DNA of 64,000 bases from an uncultured Acidobacteriota bacterium (GTDB lineage: Bacteria > Acidobacteriota > Thermoanaerobaculia > Multivoradales > JAHEKO01), in assembly GCA_963713825.1 (NCBI GenBank), contig CAVQNG010000003.1, forward strand, positions 1,760,001 to 1,824,000, written 5' to 3'. The position numbers and the translations under genes were made by a program. How positions within the stretch are numbered: the stretch's first letter is position 1; every line of letters begins with the position of its first letter. Under the pieces are notes generated by a model. That model did not search any database. It saw only the letters and a list, made by a program, of their open reading frames with translations, and was not told the origin of the DNA. This document shows, piece by piece, positions 1 to 11,360 of this stretch.

Positions 1-1183
1 AAACTCCGCCACGGGTCTGAGCCAGGATATTGGTGCCATGAGCGATGGCGAAGGACAGGAGAAAGACCAGGCTGGCTGCGGCTCCAGCGGTGGCCACGTC
101 CGGAACGAGGAGAAGGACTGCCAGGACCACAGCGACCGTTGCCACGATTGCCGTCATCGGTGTGCCGCGAGTCGAGTGGATGAAGCCGATGCTCTCGGGC
201 AGGCTTCGATCTCGAGCCATGGTCAACGCCACCCGTGAGGCGGCGAGGAGGTTGGCGTGGAGGGCGGACAGCATGGAGAGCACCGCAGCGACGATGACCA
301 GCCAGAATCCGAAGGGGCCGAGAAAATTTCTTGCGGCCTGTGCCACCACCGTAGCGGGATTCTGCTGGCTCATCTCCAAGATCGAGCCGCCTGCGTCCAC
401 TCCGACAGTCGTGATGACGAAAAGCAGGGGAAGGTAGGTGGCCAGGGCAATCGCGAGCGACAGGATCATTGCTCTTGGAATCGTCTTGCGGGCATCTCGA
501 ACCTCGCCGCCGACGGCGGCGATCAGATCGAAGCCTTGCAGGGCGATGAAGGTGAAGCCCATGGCCTGAAACAGCCCCAGGGAGCCGCCGGGGAAGAAGG
601 GCCTCAGATTCGTTACCGCCGCGTCGGGAGATCGCTGAGCCAGCGCCCACAGGCCTCCCGCGATCAAGACGACGAAGACCAGAATCTTGCCCACGGTGGC
701 CCACTGTCGGCCTCCTGGGCTACTCCGCACCAGTCCGACGCCGTAGAAGAGGATCGCGCCAGTCGCTAGAACGACCAGGACTACCCGGTGGCTCACCCAT
801 TCGAAGCTTCTACCGAAGCTGGCTTGCAAGATGGTGTCGACAGCAGTGGCAGCGTAGGCAGCGAAACCCAACGCGTAGAGGACTGCGGCGACGATCGACG
901 CCATCCAGACCACCCAACCCACAAGAAAGGCCGCCTCGCCCTCGAGCACCTTCTTGGCGAAAGAGTAGGTGCCTCCCGATTCGGGAAAGGCTGACGACAT
1001 TTCGGCGAAGCTCAGCACCGTGAGGAACGCGATCAGGCCATTCAGGGCGAAGGCCAGCATTGCGCTGGGGCCGGTGGCTGAAAAAGCCACCCCTGCCAGA
1101 GCCAGGATTCCTCCCCCGACGATGGCACCCACACCGATACCGGTGGCTCCCCAGAAGCCGATGGATCTTTGGTCTTCCGACAC
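1..1183 (-). CDS. APC-family amino acid permease (3' end runs off the window)
   Basis: Not in the ORF track; translated by hand from GTG at 1183 (GAAGGA upstream): MSEDQRSIGFWGATGIGVGAIVGGGILALAGVAFSATGPSAMLAFALNGLIAFLTVLSFAEMSSAFPESGGTYSFAKK. This has the APC TM1 (G-x-x-V-G-G-G-I) and E-x5-P-x-S-GG-x-Y motifs. Confidence 0.9.
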   Translation of the reverse strand, partial: MSEDQRSIGFWGATGIGVGAIVGGGILALAGVAFSATGPSAMLAFALNGLIAFLTVLSFAEMSSAFPESGGTYSFAKKVLEGEAAFLVGWVVWMASIVAAVLYALGFAAYAATAVDTILQASFGRSFEWVSHRVVLVVLATGAILFYGVGLVRSSPGGRQWATVGKILVFVVLIAGGLWALAQRSPDAAVTNLRPFFPGGSLGLFQAMGFTFIALQGFDLIAAVGGEVRDARKTIPRAMILSLAIALATYLPLLFVITTVGVDAGGSILEMSQQNPATVVAQAARNFLGPFGFWLVIVAAVLSMLSALHANLLAASRVALTMARDRSLPESIGFIHSTRGTPMTAIVATVAVVLAVLLLVPDVATAGAAASLVFLLSFAIAHGTNILAQTRGGV

Positions 1184-1246
1184 GGATGTTTCCTTCGAGC
1201 AGTGCTGGGAAGGGTTCTCGGAAGCCTCCAGCCCGCCCGTAATTGG

Positions 1247-2191
1247 TTACCTCAAGTTTCGCATTCGTTTGGAGATGAGGGAAGGCACAGAAAGGACGGG
1301 ACAACTCGCCGTCTGAATGACCCGCTTCGCTACGCTGCCCAGGAATTCTCGGCCAGCAGCGAACGAACCGCGTCCACCCAGTGCGATGACATCGACTTCT
1401 TCCTGATTCGCTGCCCGCACGATCTCCGCGGCCGGTATTCCGTCGCGCAACAGCACACGAGCTGCGGCCCCATCCAGTCCGAATGTGTTCGAGAGTACAG
1501 CCAGCCTCTCCTTCAGAAGAGCCCGGCATTCTGCGACGTACTCTCCCCACAACTGACTCACTGCGATGTCCCTGTCCAAGCCCTTCGGCGTGTGGAGGAC
1601 CGAAAGCAGCAACATGGACACGTCGCGCTCATGGACGCGGAAGATCTCCTGAGCCGCGATGGCTGCAGCGTCGGCTTCGATGGAGAAATCAGTAGCGACG
1701 AGAATTCGGTGGGGAAGAGAGGCTCCCAGCCTCGCCTTCGGCCCGACGCTCAGAACGGGACAACTCGCCCCTTCGGCCACGCGCTCGGTGGTGCTGCCCA
1801 CCAAAAGGTCGTCGACGCCCCCCTCACCTCGAGTGCCCATCACGATGAGACCAGCCCGCTCCCAATCCGCCACTTTCAAGATCGACACCGAGGGTCGATC
1901 GTGAAGGAGGTGGCTCTGCACAGGCTGATCCGGGCTCCGAATGCTTTCTGCCAACTCTGCCAGGCGACGATCTGCGTCCCCGATTGAGACCTCGGCGAGC
2001 GGAGACAAGATGTCGTGTCGGCTAAGCAGAGGTAACGTCCGGGACACCGCGTGGACCAAATGGAGTTGCGCCCCATGGGTGCGAGCGATCGTCATGGCCC
2101 ACGAGAGGGCCACATCCGATGGATCCGAGAAGTCGGTAGCGGAGACGATCGACCGCAGGGTGCGGGCGGACGGTTGGTTCACAGATTCCAT
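1247..2191 (-). CDS. Universal stress protein, tandem USP domains
   Basis: Two copies of ATDFS, plus LIVMGTRG...LLVGSTTERV...CPVL and IALGGRG...FLGSVAKRV...CPVL. Confidence 0.93.
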   Translation of the reverse strand: MESVNQPSARTLRSIVSATDFSDPSDVALSWAMTIARTHGAQLHLVHAVSRTLPLLSRHDILSPLAEVSIGDADRRLAELAESIRSPDQPVQSHLLHDRPSVSILKVADWERAGLIVMGTRGEGGVDDLLVGSTTERVAEGASCPVLSVGPKARLGASLPHRILVATDFSIEADAAAIAAQEIFRVHERDVSMLLLSVLHTPKGLDRDIAVSQLWGEYVAECRALLKERLAVLSNTFGLDGAAARVLLRDGIPAAEIVRAANQEEVDVIALGGRGSFAAGREFLGSVAKRVIQTASCPVLSVPSLISKRMRNLR

Positions 2192-2221
2192 TCAGATTCC
2201 TTAGCGCCGACCGTCTCGGAT

Positions 2222-4597
2222 TCAGACCTTCTGCTCGTGGATCTCGGCAAGAGTCAACTCCTTGAGGTGTTCCACCAGAGACACCAAGTGACGAATCTGT
2301 ATCTCCCAGATCGCCCTGCCCTTTTCCGCGGTGGCGAGGGTCGGATCGCCAAAAACGCCTGACTTCGAGATGTGCTCCGTTCTAGCGTACCAGCCAACGC
2401 TGTACTTGGAGGTGAAGTCCAGATACTTGGAGGAGAACTTCGGCACGAGTGCCTTCGCCTTCTTCATGTCGACCAACTCGGGCCGAACGGCGAGCGATGT
2501 GCTGGTCTCGATCTCGCCGGCGTGGACGTCATTCTTGGTCTCGGTGATGGCATAGATGTCCGTATCGCTAGTCTCGCCGCTGTCGACGCAGGTGAAGATC
2601 CGGGTGTCGCGGTTGATCATCTGAGCCGCATGGTGCAGGGTCGCCGAGTTTCCGCCGTGGCCGTTGATGATGATCAACTTGGCAATGCCGTTGCGCGCCG
2701 CACTGACTCCGACATCGTAAACGAACCTGGCCAAAGACTCGTTCGACACGCTCAGCGTGCCTGGAAAGCTGTCGTGATGATACGAAACACCATATGGGAT
2801 CAACGGAAGGACCAGGGGCCGAGGTTCTTGACAGGCCTTGGCCACCTCGTGGGCGAGATAGTCGGCGTCGAACGCATCGGTGTCCACGGGCAGGTGAGGG
2901 CCGTGCTGCTCGATCGCTCCAACCGGGAGCAGCGCTATGTCCACGCCCCGCAGGATCTTCTTCGCTTCCGGCCACGAGAGCTGGGCCCATTCATATCGTC
3001 CGTCGGCTGGCCTAGCGTTCTTGAGGCGTGGTCCCGAAGCGGGGTTTGGACCCGGCTTGGCGAGTAGGTTCTTGGCATTCAGGGCTGGATCGCCCAGCAG
3101 ATCGAATGGCACCCACTGTTTGCCATGATGCCGAAGAGACCCTTCGGCGTGCGACAGGAGAATCTCGTACAGGCGCCTCCGAATAGGCAAGGGCACCTCA
3201 TCGATCGGCGAGCGGTCCCTGTGGAAGCGCAGCATCAGCGGCTCGCGGCGGCGAGCGGCGCGGACATTGCCGATTCGGGGCTCGGAGATCAGCTGCTTTT
3301 CATGGAGTAGGGCCCCCATGTGCTCGACAGCAGCTCGTTCTTGGTGCACTCCCTTGTCGACCAAGCTTCTCAGGATTCCCTCCACCTGATCGGCTCGGTA
3401 GCCTGCCAGCGATGGGTTCAGATCGCAGGCCAGCAGCATCCCGGCGATCCGGCGGCACTTCTCGCACTTGCCGCAGGGGAGCATCTTGCCATCCACCTCA
3501 TGGGCCGCATGGCAGGAGACCTGCAGCTCGAGCAAGGATGGGTAGCGCTCGGCCAGGGTCTTCTGGATGAGGAGCTCCGACATGGGCCTCAGAGCGGAAA
3601 GCTGCCGGACTCCCCAGTGCTTTTTCGCGTAGTAGCGGCTCAGAGCATGGTCGAAGTAGCGGCTCTGATCATAGAGGCCATCGAAGTGCGGAACTCCCCT
3701 ATGGGAGGCCTTGACAGTGGTGTCGTATTCGTCGCCGATCAGCAGGTGACCGATTCCCCGCTTGCGGAGCAATGGAAGTGCTCCGAAAAGGAACACAGCG
3801 ACGGTCCACAGACGAATCGGATACTCGTCCGATCGCAGACGTTGAAAGTCGGGGCGTACGAGGGACAAATGCCGCAGCATCCAGTTGAAGATCCGGTCCG
3901 AGTTGGTCCAGACCCGGGAGGTGTTTGGCACTGTCCGCCTGAACTCGCGGAAAGCGTTGATGGCGGTGAACCAGTGACGGCCCGACTCGTTGATGTAGAT
4001 CGGATGCACGTCGCACTCCAGCTCACGGAGCAGGCCAAAGGTAAGGAGGCTGTCCTTGCCGCCGCTGGAGAGAACCGAGTACAGGTCCGAGTCGCCCTGC
4101 CAGCCAGTGAAGGTTCCGGCGACTGCGGGCTCGAAGAGGACCCGAGCGTTTACGTAGTTGTCTCGTCGCTCGAGGGGCAGGCCAGCAAACTCGGGCGTCA
4201 AGAAGGCGTTGGGCTGTTGGATCTTCTTGACGTAGATCTCGCGTGCGGTATTGGCGAGCATCTCCTGGACGAATCGTCGATCCGTAGCATCGAAGTGGCC
4301 ATCAAACACGATCTCCTTGCAGAACAGACCGTAGTTCAGAGCCACCTGAACCGCGATCATGCTCGCCAGGTTCGAGCTGGCGGGATCCTCCGGGTCGAAG
4401 ACCTCCTCTTCGTAGCGGTACGTAAGCCTCTCTTCGTAGGTGTTCCCGTCTCTGGATACGACGAATGGTGCGATGAGCTGATTCGGCTTCGTGATGACCG
4501 GACCAACGGTCAGCTTGTCGATAACCTGGAGAACCGAAAGGGGATCCTCTTTCCCGATCGCTCGGCCTTGCTGGAGGTGGGCTTCGGTGGCGGACAT
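2222..4597 (-). CDS. Fusion protein: N-terminal PP-loop adenylating domain (MurL/QueC-like, Zn site) and C-terminal creatininase/MftE-family amidohydrolase
   Basis: PP-loop SSGGKDS, SALRPMSELLI and SCH-x11-CGKCEKC in the N-terminal ~520 aa. Creatininase motifs LPVGAIEQHGPHLPVDTD, YGVSYHH, NGHGGN and HAGEIETS in the last ~260 aa. RBS GAGAGG upstream. Confidence 0.85.
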   Translation of the reverse strand: MSATEAHLQQGRAIGKEDPLSVLQVIDKLTVGPVITKPNQLIAPFVVSRDGNTYEERLTYRYEEEVFDPEDPASSNLASMIAVQVALNYGLFCKEIVFDGHFDATDRRFVQEMLANTAREIYVKKIQQPNAFLTPEFAGLPLERRDNYVNARVLFEPAVAGTFTGWQGDSDLYSVLSSGGKDSLLTFGLLRELECDVHPIYINESGRHWFTAINAFREFRRTVPNTSRVWTNSDRIFNWMLRHLSLVRPDFQRLRSDEYPIRLWTVAVFLFGALPLLRKRGIGHLLIGDEYDTTVKASHRGVPHFDGLYDQSRYFDHALSRYYAKKHWGVRQLSALRPMSELLIQKTLAERYPSLLELQVSCHAAHEVDGKMLPCGKCEKCRRIAGMLLACDLNPSLAGYRADQVEGILRSLVDKGVHQERAAVEHMGALLHEKQLISEPRIGNVRAARRREPLMLRFHRDRSPIDEVPLPIRRRLYEILLSHAEGSLRHHGKQWVPFDLLGDPALNAKNLLAKPGPNPASGPRLKNARPADGRYEWAQLSWPEAKKILRGVDIALLPVGAIEQHGPHLPVDTDAFDADYLAHEVAKACQEPRPLVLPLIPYGVSYHHDSFPGTLSVSNESLARFVYDVGVSAARNGIAKLIIINGHGGNSATLHHAAQMINRDTRIFTCVDSGETSDTDIYAITETKNDVHAGEIETSTSLAVRPELVDMKKAKALVPKFSSKYLDFTSKYSVGWYARTEHISKSGVFGDPTLATAEKGRAIWEIQIRHLVSLVEHLKELTLAEIHEQKV

Positions 4598-5682
4598 GAA
4601 CCTCTCTCCTTGGAGTTCAAGAAGGGCTGAAGCGCGTCAATGACGGCTCCACACCCTTCGCGTAAGGGATAGCAGGCAGGTAGTCCCGTTCTCTGTTGGG
4701 TACTCTTCTTTGCAGACGATGCTGCGTGTGTCGCTAGATGCTCGTCGTTCAGTGTGATCGCAACCACTGGCTTTCCAGAGATCAACTCGATGGCCTCGAT
4801 CTGGGTTTCCAGCGGGTGAATTGGATAGCCCGGAAAGCCGTCGTACTCGGCTCGGGCCGGAGCATGCTGCAACACGACGACGTCTGGTCGCCCGGCTGCC
4901 AGAAGCTCGAAGCCTCCAGGATAGGCGGGGTTCATCAAGCTGCCCTGTCCTTCCAACAGGATCACATCTGGGCGCTCTTCGTTCCATGCCGTCCATACGG
5001 CATGCTCGATTTCACCGGTTACAAAGTCGTTGACCAGGGAGTCCAGGATGACCCCGTATCGAGCCCCTTGCATCCAGGCGGTCTGTCCGGTACCCACTAG
5101 TTCTGTAGAGCGGCCTCGGATTTCCAGTCCGTCTCGCAACATCCAGGCGGTTGTACGTTTTCCGACAGCCGAGTCCGTTCCCAGCACAGCGACCTTCAGG
5201 CACGCGACTTCCTCGATCTTGCCGCTGAAGAAGTGCATATTCTTGATTGGAGGGGGCTTTCGCACATCACGAATCTTCACACCACGCTCAGCTGCGGCAG
5301 CCGAAATCTCGGCATCGTCGCTCAGGAATTCGTGCAACCCCGAGTCGATATTCAACCCTGCATGGATGGCATCAAGAACGTTCCGTCGTCCAGATTCTGG
5401 CAAGCGACCTCCGTCTGGTGCCAACCCGACGACGAAGTGGGTGGCAGGAGCGCCCTGCAACCGAGCTTTCAAGAGCGCCTCGGAAAGATCCTCAGTAATC
5501 CGGATTCCGTTCCAGTTGTGGTCGAGAACCTCTCCTGCATCGCGCCCGGCCAGGCCGGAATCAACAACGGCCAGGATTCGATATCGCGCAGAGCGGCGAA
5601 CCAGTCCGTGGGCCGTTTTCCCGTAGGTAGTGCCAAATGCACCTTCGCAATACACGATTGCATTGCCTTCTGGATGTTTCAT
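4510..5682 (-). CDS. DUF1611 family protein (DgcN D-glutamate N-acetyltransferase-like)
   Basis: GKTAHGLVR, GLAPDGGRLP, SGLHEFLSDD, GTDSAVGKRTT, TGQTAWMQG, EGQGSL and VVLQHAPAR are characteristic DUF1611 motifs. Confidence 0.88.
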   Translation of the reverse strand: MKHPEGNAIVYCEGAFGTTYGKTAHGLVRRSARYRILAVVDSGLAGRDAGEVLDHNWNGIRITEDLSEALLKARLQGAPATHFVVGLAPDGGRLPESGRRNVLDAIHAGLNIDSGLHEFLSDDAEISAAAAERGVKIRDVRKPPPIKNMHFFSGKIEEVACLKVAVLGTDSAVGKRTTAWMLRDGLEIRGRSTELVGTGQTAWMQGARYGVILDSLVNDFVTGEIEHAVWTAWNEERPDVILLEGQGSLMNPAYPGGFELLAAGRPDVVVLQHAPARAEYDGFPGYPIHPLETQIEAIELISGKPVVAITLNDEHLATHAASSAKKSTQQRTGLPACYPLREGCGAVIDALQPFLNSKERGSCPPPKPTSSKAERSGKRIPFRFSRLSTS

Positions 5683-6755
5683 TTCTTCCTCCCTGTGAGG
5701 ATTGCTACGTATCGGTCGCCTGAGAACGGGTCTTCAGAATGTCTCTCGAGTAGAGAGATCAGGCCAGCGGTCGCTGCCGGCAGTACATTCAGACTCTCCT
5801 CCTCCGCCAGCTTGCGAGTCGTCTGGAGCATCGCTTTGTCACTGACATTGGATGCCCAGCCACCGCTCGATCGGATCGCGTCGAGGGCGAGATCGCCGTC
5901 CAGAGAGTTCCAATTGATCAGGGGCTCGTTGACAGCGGTTTCGCGAATCTTCTCCGGACTTAGTGGCTCACAGTGGAGCAGATTCTTGCGGTAGGAGCGA
6001 ACAATGGGATTCTTGCCGTAGGTGGAGCCCGCCGCCATGCGAGGAATGCGCGACGTCTTACCCCTTCTGTAGAGGCTGATGAAACCCTTGTGGATTCCCG
6101 CCAGGGTCGTTCCGTTCGAAACTGGAACTGCTACCACTGCGGGTGCGTCCCTCAGCTCGTCGTAGATCTCGTAGGCGATCTGTCCGTAGGCGCTGAGCTG
6201 AATCGCGGTGTTGGCGCCGCCCGGATTGGCATCGTAGAACTCGTGTTGGTCCGCCAGCTGTTGCGAGGCTTCGACCGCACGTTCGTAGTCGCCCGGCACC
6301 CGGCGAATCGTGGCCCTCTCGGATTCGATCTCCTGGATCCGTCGTGTTTGGTACCCGGCTGGAATCAGAATCACCGCTTCGAGCCCGGCCAGTCGAGCTG
6401 CCTCGGCGACGGCTACTCCGTAGTTACCGCAGGTGGCCACGGTGACGGTGTCGAAACCACGGCGCAGCGCATCCATGACCTGAGCGAAGGCGATGCGGTC
6501 CTTCTGGGTGCCGCTGGGGTTCGCGCCTTCGAACTTCAGGAACAGCTGGCGCAGGCCGGTCTCCCGCTCGAGGTGGCGGCCGCGGGTCAACGCTGTATCA
6601 CCGACCTCCGACTCGAAGATGTCCTCGTACCATTCGAGACGCTCCTCGATTGAGAGCTCCGGATCGGCGGCGCTCTCCATGGCCTTGCGGATACGAGGTC
6701 CTTGTAGCGGTTGGCCCACCGCGCCGTCCAGCAGGTTGAAACTCTGCTCGCTCAT
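5679..6755 (-). CDS. PLP-dependent fold-type II enzyme, threonine synthase-like
   Basis: LKFEGANPSGTQKDR (PLP lysine), ATCGNYG, VPVSNGTTLAG and ILTG. Start moved to ATG 6755 (MSEQSF) to avoid overlap with the upstream CDS. ATGA overlap with the DUF1611 gene. Confidence 0.88.
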   Translation of the reverse strand: MSEQSFNLLDGAVGQPLQGPRIRKAMESAADPELSIEERLEWYEDIFESEVGDTALTRGRHLERETGLRQLFLKFEGANPSGTQKDRIAFAQVMDALRRGFDTVTVATCGNYGVAVAEAARLAGLEAVILIPAGYQTRRIQEIESERATIRRVPGDYERAVEASQQLADQHEFYDANPGGANTAIQLSAYGQIAYEIYDELRDAPAVVAVPVSNGTTLAGIHKGFISLYRRGKTSRIPRMAAGSTYGKNPIVRSYRKNLLHCEPLSPEKIRETAVNEPLINWNSLDGDLALDAIRSSGGWASNVSDKAMLQTTRKLAEEESLNVLPAATAGLISLLERHSEDPFSGDRYVAILTGRKK

Positions 6756-6780
6756 CGACCTGATCTCGGGGGTAGGATGC

Positions 6781-7320
6781 CTAGCGTTTTGGGCCGCCCC
6801 GCGGGCGGTGAATCCGTCTGTCGACAATGACCGAAGGGTTGTCGTACTCGAAGTCGTCATCCGGCAGATCGTCATCGATCTCGTCGAATCCGAGATCCTC
6901 GCTCACGTCGGGCCCTGTCGATATCCAATCAACTCGAGCCGGTCGCTCCTGTCTCAAGGTCGATTTAAGCTCCTCAAAGGACTCGCAGAGCTGGTCCCAG
7001 GAGTCACCGATGCGCTCGACGACATCCTCTCGGGAGGCGTTGCCCTGCGCAAAGCAGCTCCTGATCTCCATGCGAAGCATGAGGGCTTCGCGGTAGATCT
7101 CCTCGGCCTCCACGGCGAGATTGGGGAGCTCGTTCGCATCGTCATAGGTGGAACGGGCTTCGAGCCCGGCCACTCGGGCCATGAAGCGCTTGAGCTCTCG
7201 GTCGAGATCCTTGAGGTATCTCTTCCCGGATCTCGCGGCAGATCTCTCGCTGCTGTGGGCTCCGACAACCCATTCATCCTGCTGTCGATCACGGTGCCTG
7301 GGCGTTGCCTTCTTGCTCAT
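6781..7320 (-). CDS. Hypothetical protein (helical core, very acidic C-terminal segment); first gene of the sigma54 operon
   Basis: 179-aa ORF with strong RBS (GGAGGAAGGAAC-ATG) directly downstream of the -24/-12 promoter; tail DLGFDEIDDDLPDDDFEYD. Confidence 0.7.
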   Translation of the reverse strand: MSKKATPRHRDRQQDEWVVGAHSSERSAARSGKRYLKDLDRELKRFMARVAGLEARSTYDDANELPNLAVEAEEIYREALMLRMEIRSCFAQGNASREDVVERIGDSWDQLCESFEELKSTLRQERPARVDWISTGPDVSEDLGFDEIDDDLPDDDFEYDNPSVIVDRRIHRPRGGPKR

Positions 7321-7383
7321 GTTCCTTCCTCCAGTGGTTCGTCCTGTGCTCGAATTTGTGGAGCGTAGACGAGGAGTCCAAAG

Positions 7384-7399
7384 GCAAATTGGATGCCAA
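7384..7399 (-). promoter_or_regulatory. Sigma54 (-24/-12) promoter of the leftward operon
   Basis: Minus strand reads TTGGCATCCAATTTGC, i.e. GG-N10-GC matching TGGCAC-N5-TTGC. It lies 63 nt upstream of the 7320 start and next to a bEBP gene. Confidence 0.88.
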
Positions 7400-7493
7400 T
7401 TCCGCCCAGGCGCTCCAGAACCTGAAGAGAGTAGTCATTCTGCTGCGATTTCCAGTATTGGAGGATTTCGAATCAGGGGGGCGGCGGTATGTT

Positions 7494-7552
7494 TCGGAAT
7501 AAGAATACCGACAAGAAAAGAATTGATTTACCGATCGGAAATAGAATACAGT
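7494..7552. promoter_or_regulatory. Three tandem imperfect 18-bp sites, probable bEBP enhancer (UAS)
   Basis: TCGGAATAAGAATACCGA (7494-7511), AAAGAATTGATTTACCGA (7517-7534) and TCGGAAATAGAATACAGT (7535-7552), in an AT-rich patch about 95-155 bp upstream of the sigma54 promoter. Confidence 0.6.
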
Positions 7553-7573
7553 TTCAGTCGGGAGGACGACCCT

Positions 7574-9016
7574 ATGCTAATTCGCCTTCTTCTTCTCGTC
7601 GAAACGAGCGACCTGCGCGGTCGCCTCGCAGAGTCCTTGGCTGAGCTTGGAGCGCTGGTGTTCGTCGAGTCCGAACCCGACAGGCTCTGGGGTCGCCTCG
7701 GGGAAGATTCCTTCGATCTCGTGGTAGCCACCCGGTCGATGCTTCCTACCGATGTCGAAAGATCGATCGAAGAGATTCGCGAGCTGCCGTACCGGCCGGA
7801 GGTGATCGTCTTGGCGGATCTCGCCGAGGCGGAAGAGCGGACAGCCCTCCAGAAGGGCGGCGCTTTTGCCGTGATCGACAAGACGCTGTCGCCGGAGCCT
7901 CTGATCCAGACCCTCCGCACGGTTCTATTGCGTTTTCAAGAGCTCGGTGTCAGTCGATTGAGAGAGTCTCGTTCGCAGCGCTCGAGACTCGATGACTTCG
8001 CCTCCGAGAGCCCAGCCATGCGGCGACTCCTCGAGCTTGCTCGGCGTGTCTCCAATACCGACACATCGTTGTTGGTTCTCGGGGAAACGGGTGTCGGCAA
8101 GGAATGGTTGGCGCGGGCGATCCACTCGGAAGGTGCCCGCAGCGCTTTGCCCTTCATTGCGGTCAACTGCGCTGCAGTACCGGAGACCCTTTTGGAGAGC
8201 GAGCTTTTCGGGCACGAGAGGGGGGCCTTCACCGGCGCTGTCCGCGCCCGCCGAGGTTGCTTCGAGCTCGCTCATCGCGGCACCCTGTTCCTGGACGAGA
8301 TCGGTGACATTCCGGTCCATCTTCAGGCCAAGCTGCTACGGGCCCTTCAGGAGAGAGAGATCCAGCGCCTGGGTGCGGAGAGCTCGATGCGGGTGGACGT
8401 TCGGGTTATCGCGGCCACGAACCAGAATCTGGAACTGGCGATCGAAGATGGGCTGTTCCGGCCGGATCTCTTCTACCGGCTGAGCGTGGTGACCCTGACC
8501 ATACCTCCACTTCGAGAAAGACGAGAGGACATTGTGCCACTGATCGAGAACTACCTGGAGGATTTCCGTCAGCAGATGGGTCGCTTGGACATCGAGGGGA
8601 TCGAAGAGTCAGCGCTCGAAGCCATGTGCAACTACGAATGGCCGGGCAATGTCCGCGAGCTCATCAACGTCGTGGAGCGGGCCACGTTGCTGTGTGATGG
8701 AGAGGTGATCACGGACGAGCACCTTCCTGATGCCATAGCCGGCGGTTTGCACCCCTACCTGCAGACGGAGGGTTCCGGCGATCCGTCCTCTGCCTTCGAG
8801 CCTCTTCTGGGCGGGGCCTTGGCGGCAGGCAGGAACCAACTGGTGGAGTCGTTCGAGCGAGAGTATCTCTCGAGGCTACTCGAACGGACTTCCGGCAACA
8901 TCGCGGAAACGGCTCGTACCGCAGGCATCGATCCACGCACCCTCTACAACAAGATGAAGGCCTACGATCTGCGCAAGGAAGACTTCCGAGCGTCGCCGCG
9001 TCGGCCTCGACAGTAG
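7574..9016 (+). CDS. Sigma54-dependent enhancer-binding protein (NtrC/Fis family) with degenerate receiver domain
   Basis: Walker A GETGVGKE, ESELFGHERGAFTGA, LFLDEIG, WPGNVREL and a C-terminal Fis HTH. RBS GGAGG before ATG 7574. Confidence 0.95.
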   Translation: MLIRLLLLVETSDLRGRLAESLAELGALVFVESEPDRLWGRLGEDSFDLVVATRSMLPTDVERSIEEIRELPYRPEVIVLADLAEAEERTALQKGGAFAVIDKTLSPEPLIQTLRTVLLRFQELGVSRLRESRSQRSRLDDFASESPAMRRLLELARRVSNTDTSLLVLGETGVGKEWLARAIHSEGARSALPFIAVNCAAVPETLLESELFGHERGAFTGAVRARRGCFELAHRGTLFLDEIGDIPVHLQAKLLRALQEREIQRLGAESSMRVDVRVIAATNQNLELAIEDGLFRPDLFYRLSVVTLTIPPLRERREDIVPLIENYLEDFRQQMGRLDIEGIEESALEAMCNYEWPGNVRELINVVERATLLCDGEVITDEHLPDAIAGGLHPYLQTEGSGDPSSAFEPLLGGALAAGRNQLVESFEREYLSRLLERTSGNIAETARTAGIDPRTLYNKMKAYDLRKEDFRASPRRPRQ

Positions 9017-9031: not shown

Positions 9032-10102
9032 CTACGGTTCGACGACGAGAACGCTCGACGCCAGATCTTCGGACACCCGATCCTCGAGGCCGACGGCCTC
9101 GGAGCGCAGCCGTAGCAACTGGGAAGGCTTGACTCCCTTGGGCAACTTGCCGAGATTGCAGACCGGCTCACCCGGACTGATCGCGGGTAGCGTCGTCATG
9201 CCGATGACGGCAGCATTGAAAGGGGCGGTCAGAAAGCTGCGCTCGCGTCCGAGCAGGGTCGTATTCGTCGCAATCGGGTCGTCCTTGTCGATGATGTCTC
9301 CTGGATGGACATGGAACCGAAGAAATCCGCCCAGCTCAGCGCGAATCCACTTCGACTTCTCGATGACGAGCTGATATTTGGGGCGTTCCAGGTCACCGTC
9401 GAGCATGTCGAGGCTGCGAAGAACGTTCTTGATTCCCCGCTCCGCGGATTCGACGATGGCGGGCTCGACCTTCCAGACCTCGCCGCCTTCCATGATGATG
9501 GTCGGGCAACCGGCTCGACAGGCAGCACGGCGAAAGGCACCCTTGGGGCCGATTCCGTTCATGATGATCTCCGATCCGAACGCCTCCGCGAGCCGTCGCA
9601 CCTCAGGGTCGCTCATATCGGCGCGCACATTTGGATAGTTCGTGCGACGAACGGCCGCGGTATGCAGGTCGATGCCATAGTCGCACCGCATTACGATCTC
9701 ATCGAAGATCGCGTGTGCCATCCGGCTGGCGAGACTTCCTGTCGAGGATCCAGGAAACGACCGGTTCAGGTCGCGCCGATCCGGCAGATAGCGGGAATGC
9801 CGTTCAAAGGCGGGGAGGTTGAGCACGGGCACGAGAATGACTGCACCACGTCGTAGCTGGAATTCTTCGTCCTTGATCAAGTGACGAACCGCTCCTGTTC
9901 CATTGATCTCGTCCCCGTGAAGAGCGGCCGTGACGAAAACGACCGGACCGTCCTCGGTTGCGCGGCGAATGTGAATTGGAATTTGTACCGTCATGCTGCT
10001 GTAGCTTTCGCCCACAGCGAGATAGACGTCGCGTGACTCACCCGCCGCAATGGCCATGCCGTTCCACTCGTCGATCGGCTTTCGTTGGCGAGGCTCGGTC
10101 AT
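9032..10102 (-). CDS. Succinylglutamate desuccinylase/aspartoacylase (M14-like) family protein
   Basis: HGDEING, RDLNRSFPG, IDLHT and MEGGE motifs; usual partner of rimK. Confidence 0.92.
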   Translation of the reverse strand: MTEPRQRKPIDEWNGMAIAAGESRDVYLAVGESYSSMTVQIPIHIRRATEDGPVVFVTAALHGDEINGTGAVRHLIKDEEFQLRRGAVILVPVLNLPAFERHSRYLPDRRDLNRSFPGSSTGSLASRMAHAIFDEIVMRCDYGIDLHTAAVRRTNYPNVRADMSDPEVRRLAEAFGSEIIMNGIGPKGAFRRAACRAGCPTIIMEGGEVWKVEPAIVESAERGIKNVLRSLDMLDGDLERPKYQLVIEKSKWIRAELGGFLRFHVHPGDIIDKDDPIATNTTLLGRERSFLTAPFNAAVIGMTTLPAISPGEPVCNLGKLPKGVKPSQLLRLRSEAVGLEDRVSEDLASSVLVVEP

Positions 10103-10109
10103 GGCTGTC

Positions 10110-11360
10110 TCAGCCCGCTACCGGTGTGTCTGAATCGTCAGGCGATGGGCTCGGGGTGGTCAGGACCTCATCGGCTACCGGCAGGTCGGGTAGTTCCTGG
10201 GTCTTGGGGCGTCGACTGCGGCGCACCTTGGCCGGAATCAGCCCCCGCATCAGGTCGAGCTTGCCGAAGCAGAGCAGCCGATCGCCAGCTTCCAGCAGCC
10301 GATGCGATCGCGGATTCGGAATGACGGTCGTGCCACGGTAGAGCGTCAGCACGTTGATGTCCCTATCGCGCAAACCCGACTCGTTGATCGCCTTACCGAC
10401 GTACTCCGAACCTTCTGGAATATGAATCTCGGTAACACCATAGCCCCGACTCACGGTCAGGCGCTGGCGCAGGTCGATCTCCGGAAAGTCGACTTGAGCG
10501 GCAATGTAGTCGATGATCGCCCCGGCCACATCGAGCTGTGTGGCCCCCTCGATGCCTTCCAGACCGGGCGAGGAATTCACTTCCATGATCTGAGGTCCAT
10601 CGCGGCCCTCGAGCATGTCCACGCCAGCAACTCGTAGCCCCATGATCTGGGCGGCTCTCACGGCGGTCTCACTGTAGGTCGGATCGAGAGTGAGGGGTTC
10701 GGTTCGACCGCCACGATGGACATTGCTGCGGAACTCCTGACCCTGTGCGACCCGGCGCATGGCGGCAACCACCTGGTCGCCCACAACAAAGGCCCGGATG
10801 TCCCGACCCTTGCTCTCGGCGACGAACTTCTGGATCAGCACGTTCTGCTTTTGGAGTTGGAGCAGCTCGATAATCGCTTCAGCCGAGCTGGCGGACTCGG
10901 CGAGCAGCACGCCGATGCCCTGCGTGCCTTCCAGCAGCTTGATGACGACCGGCGCCCCTCCCACTCTGTCGATTGCCGGCAATACATCTCTCTTGTCGCG
11001 AACGAAGGTCGTCTCCGGGATACCGATCTGATGTCGGCTCAGGATCTGCAAACTGCGGAGCTTGTCTCGAGAGTTGGTGATGCCCGCCGACGAGTTAGCG
11101 CAAAAGACATCCATCTGCTCGAACTGTCGCACCACTGCTGTTCCGAAGTAGGTGATGGACGCGCCGATTCGCGGCAGCACTGCATCATATTGAGACAGAT
11201 GCTTTTGCCGGAAAAAAAGGTCCGGAGCGCCTGCCCGCAAGTCAATCGCGAACTTCAAGGTGTCGAGGACCTTGATCTGGTGCCCTCGTTGCTCCGCCGC
11301 CTCGCGGAGTCGTCGTGTGCTGTAGCAGCGTGGGCTGCACGACAGGATTCCAAGTTTCAT
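10110..11360 (-). CDS. rimK: RimK-family ATP-grasp alpha-L-glutamate ligase with C-terminal TrkA-C (RCK_C) domain
   Basis: YSTRRLREAA, DAVLPRIGASIT, RDKLRSLQ, KLLEGTQGIGV, FRSNVHRGG and EVNSSPGLEG, followed by EIHIPEGSEYVGKAINESGLRDRDINVLTLYRG...LEAGDRLLCFG. Confidence 0.95.
   Translation of the reverse strand: MKLGILSCSPRCYSTRRLREAAEQRGHQIKVLDTLKFAIDLRAGAPDLFFRQKHLSQYDAVLPRIGASITYFGTAVVRQFEQMDVFCANSSAGITNSRDKLRSLQILSRHQIGIPETTFVRDKRDVLPAIDRVGGAPVVIKLLEGTQGIGVLLAESASSAEAIIELLQLQKQNVLIQKFVAESKGRDIRAFVVGDQVVAAMRRVAQGQEFRSNVHRGGRTEPLTLDPTYSETAVRAAQIMGLRVAGVDMLEGRDGPQIMEVNSSPGLEGIEGATQLDVAGAIIDYIAAQVDFPEIDLRQRLTVSRGYGVTEIHIPEGSEYVGKAINESGLRDRDINVLTLYRGTTVIPNPRSHRLLEAGDRLLCFGKLDLMRGLIPAKVRRSRRPKTQELPDLPVADEVLTTPSPSPDDSDTPVAG

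Follow-up and report, generated by a model that had tools for sequence, protein, structure and literature searches.

A fold-type II PLP enzyme, a DUF1611 protein, and a PP-loop/creatininase fusion protein, usually followed by an enolase-superfamily epimerase, form a very widespread and undescribed gene cassette whose linkage is near-invariant; literature searches returned no account of its pathway. The copy studied here lies in the window, the whole 64,000-nucleotide stretch of DNA that was analysed, and is a stress-regulated, trimmed version of the canonical cassette. The three enzyme genes are probably the core of a cassette for tailoring amino acids or dipeptides. The locus comprises the following features.

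1..1183, minus strand: 5' part of an APC-family amino-acid permease (Pfam AA_permease_2, 133.9 bits)
1247..2191, minus strand: tandem universal stress protein (USP) with two USP domains, 314 aa (PF00582, 161.5 bits, two stretches)
2222..3009, minus strand: creatininase-family metal amidohydrolase domain, C-terminal in the fusion (residues ~530-791; PF02633)
3010..4597, minus strand: predicted MurL-superfamily PP-loop ATP-pyrophosphatase domain, N-terminal in the fusion (residues 1-529; hhalign, motifs)
4510..5682, minus strand: DUF1611 protein with a Rossmann-like N domain and a P-loop domain (PF17396, 89.6 bits; PF07755, 211.8 bits)
5679..6875, minus strand: fold-type II PLP enzyme of the threonine-synthase family (PF00291, 181.4 bits; NF004996, 413.7 bits)
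6781..7320, minus strand: acidic 179-aa hypothetical protein, the operon's first ORF, with no Pfam or NCBIfam family
7383..7398, minus strand: sigma54-type -24/-12 element, TGGCATCCAATTTGC(C) (sequence pattern TGGCAT-N5-TTGC)
7574..9016, plus strand: divergent NtrC-type response regulator/bEBP, about 480 aa (PF00158, 229.7 bits; AAA_lid_14; HTH_8)

An earlier note had described a leftward operon behind a sigma54 promoter with a divergent bEBP, and this layout was borne out by the ORFs, their domains, and the -24/-12-type element. The packed minus-strand operon runs from the hypothetical protein through the ThrC-family PLP enzyme, DUF1611, the fusion, and the tandem USP to the APC permease, with overlaps of 4 and 88 nt and gaps of 30-63 nt; as ORFs, the fusion spans 2222-4597 and the permease 2-1183, open at the window edge. 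The permease gene extends past that edge; its complete product has 738 aa and carries a USP domain at its C-terminus. Next on the same strand, outside the window, comes a gene for a 743-aa SLC12-type permease. A RimK+TrkA_C gene adjoins the operon neighbourhood. The sigma54-type element sits 64 nt 5' of the operon's first ATG (7320). Its pattern by itself is not rare: with up to two mismatches allowed, the window has 37 matches where 22 would be expected. Among related loci, 11 of 66 have a similar site upstream, compared with about 1% of shuffled sequences. A sigma70-like promoter was looked for in the operon region and none was found, and terminator-like sites there were no commoner than in shuffled sequence. 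The divergent activator combines REC, sigma54-AAA+, and HTH_8 domains, the Response_reg match being weak, and its start, read from the sequence, is the ATG at 7574 rather than 7148. A homologous activator is also divergent and upstream in L003, L005, and G306. The 179-aa ORF has tblastn matches only in close relatives, namely L003 and L005 (35-42% identity), G306 (62%), and G330 (35%).

The fusion family contains more than 2865 proteins, mostly fusions of ~790 aa, and was confirmed in at least 573 genomic stretches. Linkage was counted in the best 80 loci among the matches listed, which carry more than 12 phylum-level labels. The PLP gene was adjacent in all 69 evaluable loci of these 80. DUF1611 lay directly upstream of the fusion on the same strand in 77/80, so that the linkage whose survey the earlier note had proposed is conserved; scripted adjacency gave 63/72, or 71/72 once 8 loci flagged only through overlapping alignments were added. 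The creatininase domain was likewise found in 77/80. An enolase-superfamily (MR_MLE) gene stood directly downstream of the fusion in 64 of the 70 evaluable loci and 3.5-5 kb away in 2 more. Its best solved relatives are dipeptide epimerases (3JVA at 233.7 bits, 3RIT, and 1JPM/1TKK; range 216-234 bits), with which it shares an aligned D-x-D stretch, and it scores under the cut-offs for both AE-epimerase and DgcA (166.3 against 400 for the latter).

No enolase-superfamily gene was found within the window's first 13 kb or the 15 kb flanking it on the left. The earlier observation that no such racemase was visible therefore holds, and the dgcA that might have lain just beyond the left edge was not there. 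Of the same-family genomes that fall outside the window's clade and include downstream sequence, 6/6 carry the epimerase gene, and the epimerase-less loci nearest to the window form one clade with 100% support. The absence here is therefore a secondary loss; the tandem USP stands at the position of the dipeptide epimerase, together with permeases, and a tandem USP occupies the equivalent position in related loci (G306, G307, G330/L003, and L005). The frequency with which an MR_MLE gene directly follows the fusion shows that the fusion is a partner of the usual racemase and not its substitute. The proposals that the fusion replaces DgcA non-orthologously, and that it and a dgcA-type gene are mutually exclusive, are contradicted by this co-occurrence.

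The fusion protein has 791 aa and starts at the ATG at 4597, preceded by the Shine-Dalgarno sequence AAGGAGAG. Its creatininase domain (PF02633, residues 538-775, 238.6 bits) scores below the equivalog cut-offs of the MftE model (147.9 bits; 172) and the creatininase model (106.4 bits; 235), and retains 81 of the 83 positions that are at least 95% conserved across 58 other fusions, the changes being L571V and R732Y. The first ~530 residues matched no Pfam family, even at E≤10. They contain SGGKDS at 177-182 and a Cys4 site (C362, C375, C378, and C381). Across the window's three proteins, 130/134, 81/83, 117/121, and 123/125 conserved columns are kept, including all catalytic-looking ones.

Judged by profiles and a structural model, the N-domain is a distant MurL-family homologue with a QueC-like fold. 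Its profile and that of the MurL family could be aligned across 329 columns (hhalign 98.5%, E 2.8e-15); in a like-for-like comparison, one MurL-like protein gave 89% (E 2.3e-6) and one QueC 29.5% (E 5.7e-4); and an Atlas look-up of a homologue returned MurL_N/MurL_epimerase_C in 27/30 feature hits. The likeness to MurL put forward in the earlier note is upheld by these three comparisons. The AlphaFold model (pLDDT 91.1, pTM 0.89) found its best solved folds in QatC (E 3.5e-5), QueC, and Cap9, with TM-scores normalised to target of 0.69-0.73 for QueC and Cap9. The description of MurL itself as a PP-loop enzyme fared unevenly: GGKDS and CxxCxKC are carried by 9/9 MurL-family ORFs fetched, but the literature found does not state it. 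The available text of a 2021 review describes MurL as lacking known conserved domains, and that of PMC8788868 hypothesises a mechanism of adenylation, epimerisation, and hydrolysis.

The window's DUF1611, whose P-loop motif is GTDSAVGKRTT and whose gene overlaps the fusion gene at its 3' end by the 88 nt mentioned above, is DgcN-like, though its model score of 156.8 bits (cut-off 480) does not make it a DgcN equivalog. It shares 58-68% identity with cassette DUF1611s of other phyla and 41-42% with the genome's second DUF1611. In NCBIfam naming, DgcN is an N-acetyltransferase and DgcA an N-acetyl-D-Glu racemase, and the accessible part of PMC12363236 presents an irreversible racemisation pathway in which dgcN is the key gene. 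The PLP enzyme passes the 'threonine synthase' model NF004996 (cut-off 266) and falls below the cut-off of TIGR00260 (111.4 bits vs 167); a separate ThrC is encoded elsewhere in the genome (NF006050, 418 bits). Translation of the PLP enzyme probably begins at the in-frame ATG at 6755, which gives 358 aa and lies just past the stop of the upstream ORF.

As the best, if tentative, explanation, at somewhat under an even chance, we propose an ATP-driven module acting on an amino acid or dipeptide, which it would acylate, adenylate, and hydrolyse so as to edit stereochemistry or form an amide. By analogy with its relative DgcN, DUF1611 would acylate or aminoacylate an amino acid at its amino group, a substrate that the PLP enzyme, as a guess, makes or consumes. 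The MurL-like domain, acting as MurL and QueC do, would adenylate the free carboxylate, converting ATP to AMP and PPi; PPi release would fit the recurrence of a DHH-family pyrophosphatase-like gene downstream in 5 related loci. Adenylation could render C-alpha labile, through an oxazolone-type intermediate, or allow attack by an amine, and the fused creatininase-type hydrolase would open or cleave the resulting (cyclic) amide to release the product. In sum, these steps would take an N-acyl amino acid or dipeptide one way, at the cost of ATP, through a stereo-inversion or a re-linking. The enolase-type epimerase of the canonical cassette would equilibrate the same or a neighbouring stereocentre; the window's clade may have dropped this step, may perform it in trans, or may not need it because of the linked permeases. 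Against this explanation, the only characterised relatives are remote (MurL at 18-23% identity, DgcN far under its model cut-off), two epimerase-type enzymes in one cassette would be redundant, and the cassette DUF1611 may not be an acyltransferase.

A rather unlikely, yet the strongest, alternative is that the cassette makes an amino-acid-derived amide, cyclic amidine, or dipeptide serving as a compatible solute or stress protectant. QueC-clade enzymes (QueC, Cap9, and QatC), the nearest solved folds, form amides, not epimers; the PP-loop domain may accordingly work as an ATP-dependent synthetase of amides or amidines, and the creatininase as a cyclase or ring hydrolase. The tandem USP, the APC+USP and SLC12-type permeases, the RimK+TrkA_C next door, and sigma54 control would tie the cassette to osmotic or ionic stress. 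Other loci have MscS, CorA, MgtE, HSP20, a group-type chaperonin, or YitT as neighbours, and G326, G310, L073, and L075 have SLC12-type genes next to the cassette; such context genes point to stress or ion homeostasis rather than stereochemistry. Each theme, clustered from the ORFs of a custom caller, appears in a minority of loci (5-12/80). Sediment metagenomes of salt-marsh, marine, and freshwater origin contain near-identical DNA, sediment being a habitat common to the whole host community, and the presence of the cassette in 14/41 genomes (40 relatives and the window's own) is patchy, as in an accessory trait. This enzyme set is not required by any known solute, and the alternative leaves the dipeptide-epimerase partner and the MurL kinship unexplained.

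An improbable reading is that the cassette, in the manner of MurL, provides D-Glu or another D-residue for peptidoglycan where a genome has no glutamate racemase; the available literature gives MurL itself this role. No TIGR00067 glutamate racemase match was found in the window's genome or in 5/5 same-genus genomes, and among the 41 genomes 9 have the cassette without MurI, 5 have both, 6 neither, and 21 MurI alone. These relatives are not independent, however, and the split within the family is only 8:4 vs 5:7; 3 of the 6 genomes with neither are 96-97% complete. The operon has no Mur ligase, the genome encodes a YgeA-type Asp/Glu racemase (TIGR00035, 244.5 bits) and a D-amino-acid-transaminase-like protein, a homologue of the fusion exists in a Thermoplasmatota archaeon, and the sigma54/USP context is unlike that of a housekeeping function.

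About as improbable is the earlier note's scheme, in which DUF1611 N-acetylates an imported D-Glu or other D-amino acid and the fusion substitutes for DgcA and a deacetylase. In its favour, the locus lacks an enolase gene, the homology to MurL stands, the fusion includes an amidohydrolase, a permease is linked, and the window's enzymes retain their conserved residues without a linked epimerase. That lack is a derived loss in one clade, however, the epimerase accompanying the fusion in most loci; the DUF1611 score lends a D-Glu substrate no support; the invariably linked PLP enzyme has no role in such a scheme; and a second DUF1611 + MR_MLE pair on another contig, clustered with a D-aminoacylase-like gene, fits Dgc logic better. 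Least credible is a QueC/Cap9/QatC-type enzyme modifying a nucleobase, tRNA, or protein instead of a free amino acid: the solved folds, some JGI records naming homologues 7-cyano-7-deazaguanine synthase, and the absence of a PF06508 QueC match at E≤1e-20 from the window's genome and 12 relatives speak for it, but the N-domain itself lacks a Pfam QueC match, profiles favour MurL, the constant partners are amino-acid and dipeptide enzymes, and queD, queE, queF, cyclase, and defence genes were not seen in the neighbourhoods.

The proposed ATP-driven module can be compared with several known systems. With QueC, Cap9 (type IV CBASS), and QatC (QatABCD), the fusion's N-domain shares a predicted PP-loop core and C-terminal Cys ribbon, and their chemistry, carboxylate adenylation, is that proposed for it; unlike in these systems, there is no queuosine or defence context, and an extra ~160-residue N-terminal subdomain, common to MurL, does not align with QueC. 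The cassette's fourth gene in other genomes, missing from the window, resembles the dipeptide epimerases of murein-peptide recycling (YcjG and YkfB; PDB 1JPM/1TKK and 3JVA), but its cassette neighbours are ATP-dependent and PLP enzymes rather than peptidases of the MpaA or PepD type. As in the DgcN-DgcA(-deacetylase) inversion of D-glutamate, DUF1611 is mostly paired with an enolase-superfamily racemase/epimerase and an amide hydrolase, and the logic may likewise be to acylate, invert, and deacylate. In contrast to that system, both proteins score below the Dgc cut-offs, the MR_MLE protein is nearer to dipeptide epimerases, a MurL-like ATP-using domain and a PLP enzyme are added, and the window itself has no racemase. 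The MurD2-MurL route (Xanthomonas and others; NF041275; MurL_N, MurL_epimerase_C) yields D-Glu in peptidoglycan. The fusion differs from MurL in its low identity (14.9 bits against a cut-off of 700), its creatininase-family hydrolase, and its partners, a PLP enzyme, DUF1611, and usually a dipeptide epimerase in place of a Mur ligase. Homology to MurL nonetheless extends across the N-terminal subdomain, PP-loop (S/GGGKDS), and Cys4 ribbon, and the fusion presumably, like MurL, uses ATP to activate the carboxylate of the C-terminal residue of an N-acyl substrate.

Six close-packed ORFs on the minus strand were called in the first 7.3 kb of the window, and an NtrC-type activator, recognised by domain scan and start-codon reading, is transcribed away from them.

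Genes of the operon and its divergent activator, with window coordinates
6781-7320, minus strand: acidic hypothetical protein of 179 aa, without a Pfam or NCBIfam family
5679-6875, minus strand: fold-type II PLP enzyme (PALP; NF004996 'threonine synthase', 413.7 bits)
4510-5682, minus strand: DUF1611 protein, matching both Pfam DUF1611_N and DUF1611
2222-4597, minus strand: fusion protein of 791 aa, with a creatininase-family domain at residues 538-775 (238.6 bits)
1247-2191, minus strand: tandem USP protein, the operon gene after the fusion
running off the window's left edge, minus strand: APC permease, the last operon ORF inside the window
true start ATG at 7574, plus strand: divergent NtrC-type activator

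Extending the reading 15 kb to the left of the window revealed that the whole permease is a 738-aa APC+USP protein, followed on the same strand by a 743-aa SLC12-type permease, beyond which only unrelated genes lie; no enolase-superfamily gene occurs in the window or in these 15 kb. The DUF1611 and fusion genes overlap by 88 nt (4510-4597) in different frames, and residues ~21-30, the conserved beginning of the fusion protein, are encoded within the overlap. A TGGCAT-N5-TTGC element was located at 7383-7398, 64 nt ahead of the first ATG of the operon. Patterns of this type are by themselves common in the window (37 matches vs 22 expected). Similar sigma54-type sites precede 11 of 66 related loci, compared with about 1% of shuffles. 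No sigma70-like promoter was found for the operon, and terminator-like sites at the operon were no more frequent than in shuffles. With both a GG-N10-GC-type element and a divergent enhancer-binding protein present, the operon is predicted to be sigma54-dependent. ORFs, domain scans and promoter reading thus confirmed the packed operon with a sigma54-type element and divergent activator that had been described from the sequence.

Two short contigs of an estuary metatranscriptome (X20), 164 and 263 nt long with 0 and 1 differences, fall inside the fusion and DUF1611 genes (window 2700-2835 and 5361-5621). Because DNA carry-over is possible in such libraries, these contigs are a hint of expression and not proof of transcription; parts of the window lacking X20 cover, and runs with a small share, are uninformative. 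The activator's neighbours (window 9032-11360) are a deacylase-like gene of the AstE/AspA family and a glutamate ligase of RimK type whose C-terminal TrkA_C domain is of the K+-sensing type. The same pair is found near the cassette of PLP enzyme, DUF1611 protein and fusion in loci L016, L021 and L059 and in genome G326 (L107), and RimK alone in L005.

The neighbourhood of the fusion was surveyed in the best 80 of at least 573 loci, with evaluable subsets that differ per gene. The PLP gene is bound to the cassette without exception, standing just upstream in 69/69 evaluable loci. A script placed DUF1611 between that gene and the fusion in 63 of 72 evaluable loci, or in 71 of 72 once eight flagged solely for overlapping alignments are added, and it is directly upstream on the same strand in 77/80. 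Its stop codon is mostly 0-60 nt from the first aligned residue of the fusion, a pattern into which the 88-nt overlap of the window fits; the two genes overlap or abut in a comparable way in most related loci. The exceptions are L007 (8826-11578) and L082 (1-1996), where the PLP gene stands beside the fusion without DUF1611, and L004, whose upstream sequence is too short. Of the 80 loci, 77 contain the creatininase domain; L075 and L078 stop at contig ends, and L069 carries a stand-alone N-domain. Immediately downstream of the fusion, an MR_MLE enolase-superfamily gene completes the cassette in 64 of 70 evaluable loci, and in L052 and L055 it is 3.5-5 kb away. Among solved structures it is closest to dipeptide epimerases (3JVA, 233.7 bits; 3RIT, 222.2; 1JPM/1TKK, 216.3), and it scores below the cut-offs of the Thermotoga-type L-Ala-D/L-Glu epimerase (226.4 vs 500) and of DgcA (166.3 vs 400).

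These counts bear on two proposals of the earlier note. The linkage of the fusion to DUF1611 proved to be conserved, whereas the idea that the fusion substitutes for the DgcA racemase, and that the two exclude each other, is refuted: since 64 of 70 loci carry both, the fusion is a regular companion of an enolase-type epimerase and does not replace it.

Several unusual arrangements were set aside. The 855-aa DUF1611-PP-loop protein P0125 is a single metagenomic sequence, and in-frame joining of DUF1611 and the fusion occurs in 0/80 genomic loci. Very long 'PPC' ORFs are ORF-calling artefacts, as are ORF clusters c5, c8, c33 and c40, probably antisense shadow ORFs.

Among the 70 evaluable loci, the epimerase gene is missing from L003, L005, L040 and L082. 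In G306, a genome of the same genus, gene order is identical to that of the window from the SLC12-type permease through the activator; in G307 the fusion is followed by the USP and APC permease genes, and in G330, the genome of L003, by USP. Outside the window's clade, MR_MLE follows the fusion in all six same-family genomes with downstream sequence (G326, G320, G317, G309, G324 and G318), G310 and G335 ending inside the fusion and not being counted. A FastTree phylogeny of 68 fusion proteins joins the window with G306, L003 and L005 in a single clade (100% local support), placed among epimerase-bearing Acidobacteriota loci under an enclosing node of 82% support (the midpoint root serves for drawing only). 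To explain this pattern, no more would be needed than one loss of the epimerase in the lineage of the window, together with a gain of USP and permease genes at the same position. Columns conserved at ≥95% in epimerase-linked loci are largely kept in the window: 130/134 in the N-domain, 81/83 in the C-terminal domain, 117/121 in DUF1611 and 123/125 in the PLP enzyme, so that its three enzymes are still under constraint. One substitution in the hydrolase domain, R732Y (window 2402-2404), is confined to the window, L003 and L005 (3/62), all of the USP-bearing epimerase-less clade, with Arg in 59/62 fusions, and is absent from the epimerase-less L040 and L082.

No cassette-type epimerase was found elsewhere in the window's genome (G000). 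The best match, 40% identical, is an MR_MLE gene on contig C4, standing after a second DUF1611 that is 42% identical to the window's. In this cluster (L100:1123-11022), the pair comes after genes for a DDAH/ADI-like protein, an M20 peptidase and a fusion (864 aa) of D-aminopeptidase-like and amidohydrolase parts, and before a PLD-like gene and one of the Na+/H+ antiporter family. The cluster looks like Dgc-type D-amino-acid or peptide salvage and matches Dgc logic better than the window.

The N-domain of the fusion carries the PP-loop motif SGGKDS and four invariant cysteines, and Pfam offers no family for residues 1 to ~530 even at E≤10, QueC (PF06508) included. The NCBIfam MurL model matches the fusion at 14.9 bits (E 0.0069) over residues 330-383 only, below its cut-off of 700, and in a whole-genome search of G000 the fusion was the sole match to that model (12.1 bits). 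No protein of 301 Pseudomonadota genomes exceeded the cut-off either; nine MurL-family ORFs from these genomes, scoring 104-300 bits, served as the comparison set and are family homologues, not proven MurL. All nine contain GGKDS and CxxCxKC with the same spacing as the window's protein, and alignment of the N-domain family profile to the MurL-family profile by hhalign gave a probability of 98.5% (E 2.8e-15) over 329 columns, including the N-terminal subdomain of ~150 residues. The N-domain profile is also nearer to one MurL-like protein (89%, E 2.3e-6) than to QueC (29.5%, E 5.7e-4), the latter comparison using a single QueC from another genome, since G000 and the 12 relatives searched supplied no QueC sequence for a profile. 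At E≤1e-20, PF06508 finds no QueC in G000 and 12 relatives, while it is present in 9 of 14 control genomes. With the homologue P0129 as query, 27 of 30 Atlas feature hits carry MurL_N/MurL_epimerase_C.

The AlphaFold model of the N-domain (pLDDT 91.1, pTM 0.89) has its best solved fold matches in QatC (E 3.5e-5), QueC (2PG3 and 3BL5, 0.69-0.71) and Cap9 (0.73; TM-scores normalised to the target), and searching PDB sequences with the profile returned only motif-level PP-loop matches at E>0.05. The fold search could not separate MurL from QueC, because no MurL-named entry was among the listed matches. Profile comparisons, shared motifs and fold matches together nevertheless indicate that the N-domain is a MurL-superfamily member with a QueC-type core, not a MurL orthologue, and the MurL-likeness claimed for it in the earlier note is upheld. 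A 2021 review (PMC8788868) describes MurL as lacking known conserved domains, with adenylation, epimerisation and hydrolysis only hypothesised. No literature linking MurL with a PP-loop was found. In P0124, a metagenomic homologue of 825 aa, the creatininase domain is absent, and alignment reading reveals instead a region with a VLDVGCAKG-type stretch resembling a SAM methyltransferase motif.

DUF1611 scores 156.8 bits against the DgcN model NF041892 (cut-off 480) and is not a DgcN equivalog. The creatininase domain belongs to PF02633 (238.6 bits, gathering score 31.3) and lies below the cut-offs for creatininase (TIGR04448, 106.4 vs 235) and MftE (TIGR03964, 147.9 vs 172); its 81 retained columns out of 83 include EQHGPH, DTD, NGHGGN and HAGEIETS, motifs that we take to be its metal ligands. 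The PLP enzyme exceeds the cut-off of NF004996 (413.7 bits, cut-off 266) and falls below that of TIGR00260 (111.4 bits, cut-off 167), and a separate ThrC is encoded elsewhere in G000 (NF006050, 418 bits, cut-off 303).

Relatives of the N-domain number more than 2865 in a large protein collection, most of them creatininase fusions of ~790 aa with 53-84% identity. Clustering at 50% left 366 representatives, many of them fragments, together with stand-alone forms of ~480-510 aa at 27-45% identity, including one from a Thermoplasmatota archaeon and one from Methylomirabilales. Scanning one genome per species confirmed at least 573 genomic stretches, the best 80 of which bear the labels of Acidobacteriota, Desulfobacterota, Planctomycetota, Gemmatimonadota, Ignavibacteriota, Calditrichota, Latescibacterota, KSB1, Krumholzibacteriota and others. 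Nearly all of these 80 belong to uncultured sediment organisms, one being the cultured strain NaphS2, and near-identical DNA was detected in salt-marsh, marine and freshwater sediment metagenomes. The N-domain is present in 14 of 41 genomes (40 relatives and the window's own), and the cassette is therefore a patchy, accessory trait.

Two studies describe dgcN as central to an irreversible route that racemises acidic D-amino acids and their amides (PMC12363236; PMC10845958), and NCBIfam names DgcN an N-acetyltransferase and DgcA an N-acetyl-D-Glu racemase. The characterised relatives, namely DgcN, DgcA, the dipeptide epimerases and MurL, all work on N-acylated amino acids or dipeptides, at the C-terminal residue. 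Because of this shared substrate type, we tentatively propose by analogy that DUF1611 would acylate an amino acid, the MurL-like domain would adenylate, the creatininase domain would hydrolyse and the PLP enzyme would either produce the amino acid or use it up, so that the core could quite possibly spend ATP to invert or re-link an N-acyl amino acid or dipeptide in one direction only. The main rival, which we consider somewhat doubtful, keeps the other parts and makes the PP-loop domain a QueC-like amide or amidine synthetase that produces a stress metabolite. In its favour stand the USP, two permeases and neighbouring RimK-TrkA_C ligase of this locus, as well as other loci with MscS, CorA, MgtE, HSP20, chaperonin, YitT or a DHH-type pyrophosphatase-like gene, although each of these themes occurs in a minority of loci only.

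Supply of D-Glu for peptidoglycan is very unlikely. In its favour, glutamate racemase TIGR00067 has matches (E≤1e-10) in 0/6 genomes of the genus (G000 and G303-G307, 70-100% complete), and among the 41 genomes nine have the cassette without MurI, five both, six neither and 21 MurI alone. Against it, this loose association is weak once relatedness is considered, the relatives not being independent, six genomes manage with neither, G000 encodes a YgeA-type Asp/Glu racemase (C25:70728-71381) and a D-amino-acid-transaminase-like gene (C3:850328-851125), and a homologue exists in an archaeon.

Acylation, adenylation and hydrolysis by the cassette can be carried further into a more specific scheme, a speculative one that we regard as improbable in full, in which the fusion is a self-contained two-step machine for ATP-paid irreversible inversion. 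The PP-loop domain would adenylate the C-terminal carboxylate of an N-acyl amino acid or dipeptide, yielding a racemisation-prone five-membered oxazolone, and the creatininase-type domain, which hydrolyses five-membered cyclic amides, would open the ring stereoselectively. Together with DUF1611 and the PLP enzyme, it would recover from necromass or aged proteins those amino acids that are racemised or of the D form, a pathway that might be common to slow-growing sediment bacteria and archaea. In the window's clade, a stress or nitrogen signal acting through sigma54/NtrC would induce it, and dedicated permeases would supply it.

A search of the openly accessible literature found no description of the cassette's gene set. 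The window adds an epimerase-less variant with predicted sigma54 control, USP and permease genes, and it directly refutes the idea of replacement. Within its enzyme family MurL alone has been characterised, its mechanism still a hypothesis, and a large, highly conserved sister family is encoded in hundreds of uncultured sediment species of more than a dozen phyla, 55-70% identical across phyla and tied to DUF1611, the PLP enzyme and usually a dipeptide epimerase. Working out one member would establish a new ATP-dependent chemistry of amino acids or dipeptides, shed light on the action of MurL, and provide a function both for many DUF1611 proteins now at risk of a 'DgcN' label and for PLP genes that a naming model calls 'threonine synthase'. 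The window's clade offers a natural experiment, with a core that lacks the epimerase, has permeases of its own and is predicted to be regulated through sigma54.

Compared with known systems, the cassette of the window departs from the DgcN-DgcA pair, in which an enolase-superfamily racemase is adjacent, whereas the window's DUF1611 has none. The MurL system includes a MurD2-type ligase partner, and a Mur-ligase-looking ORF, judged by eye, adjoins the two best MurL-family loci of the comparison set, while no Mur-ligase domain occurs among the operon or neighbouring proteins of the window. The window's N-domain resembles MurL in its homologous N-terminal subdomain, in the loop carrying GGKDS and in the CxxCxKC ribbon.
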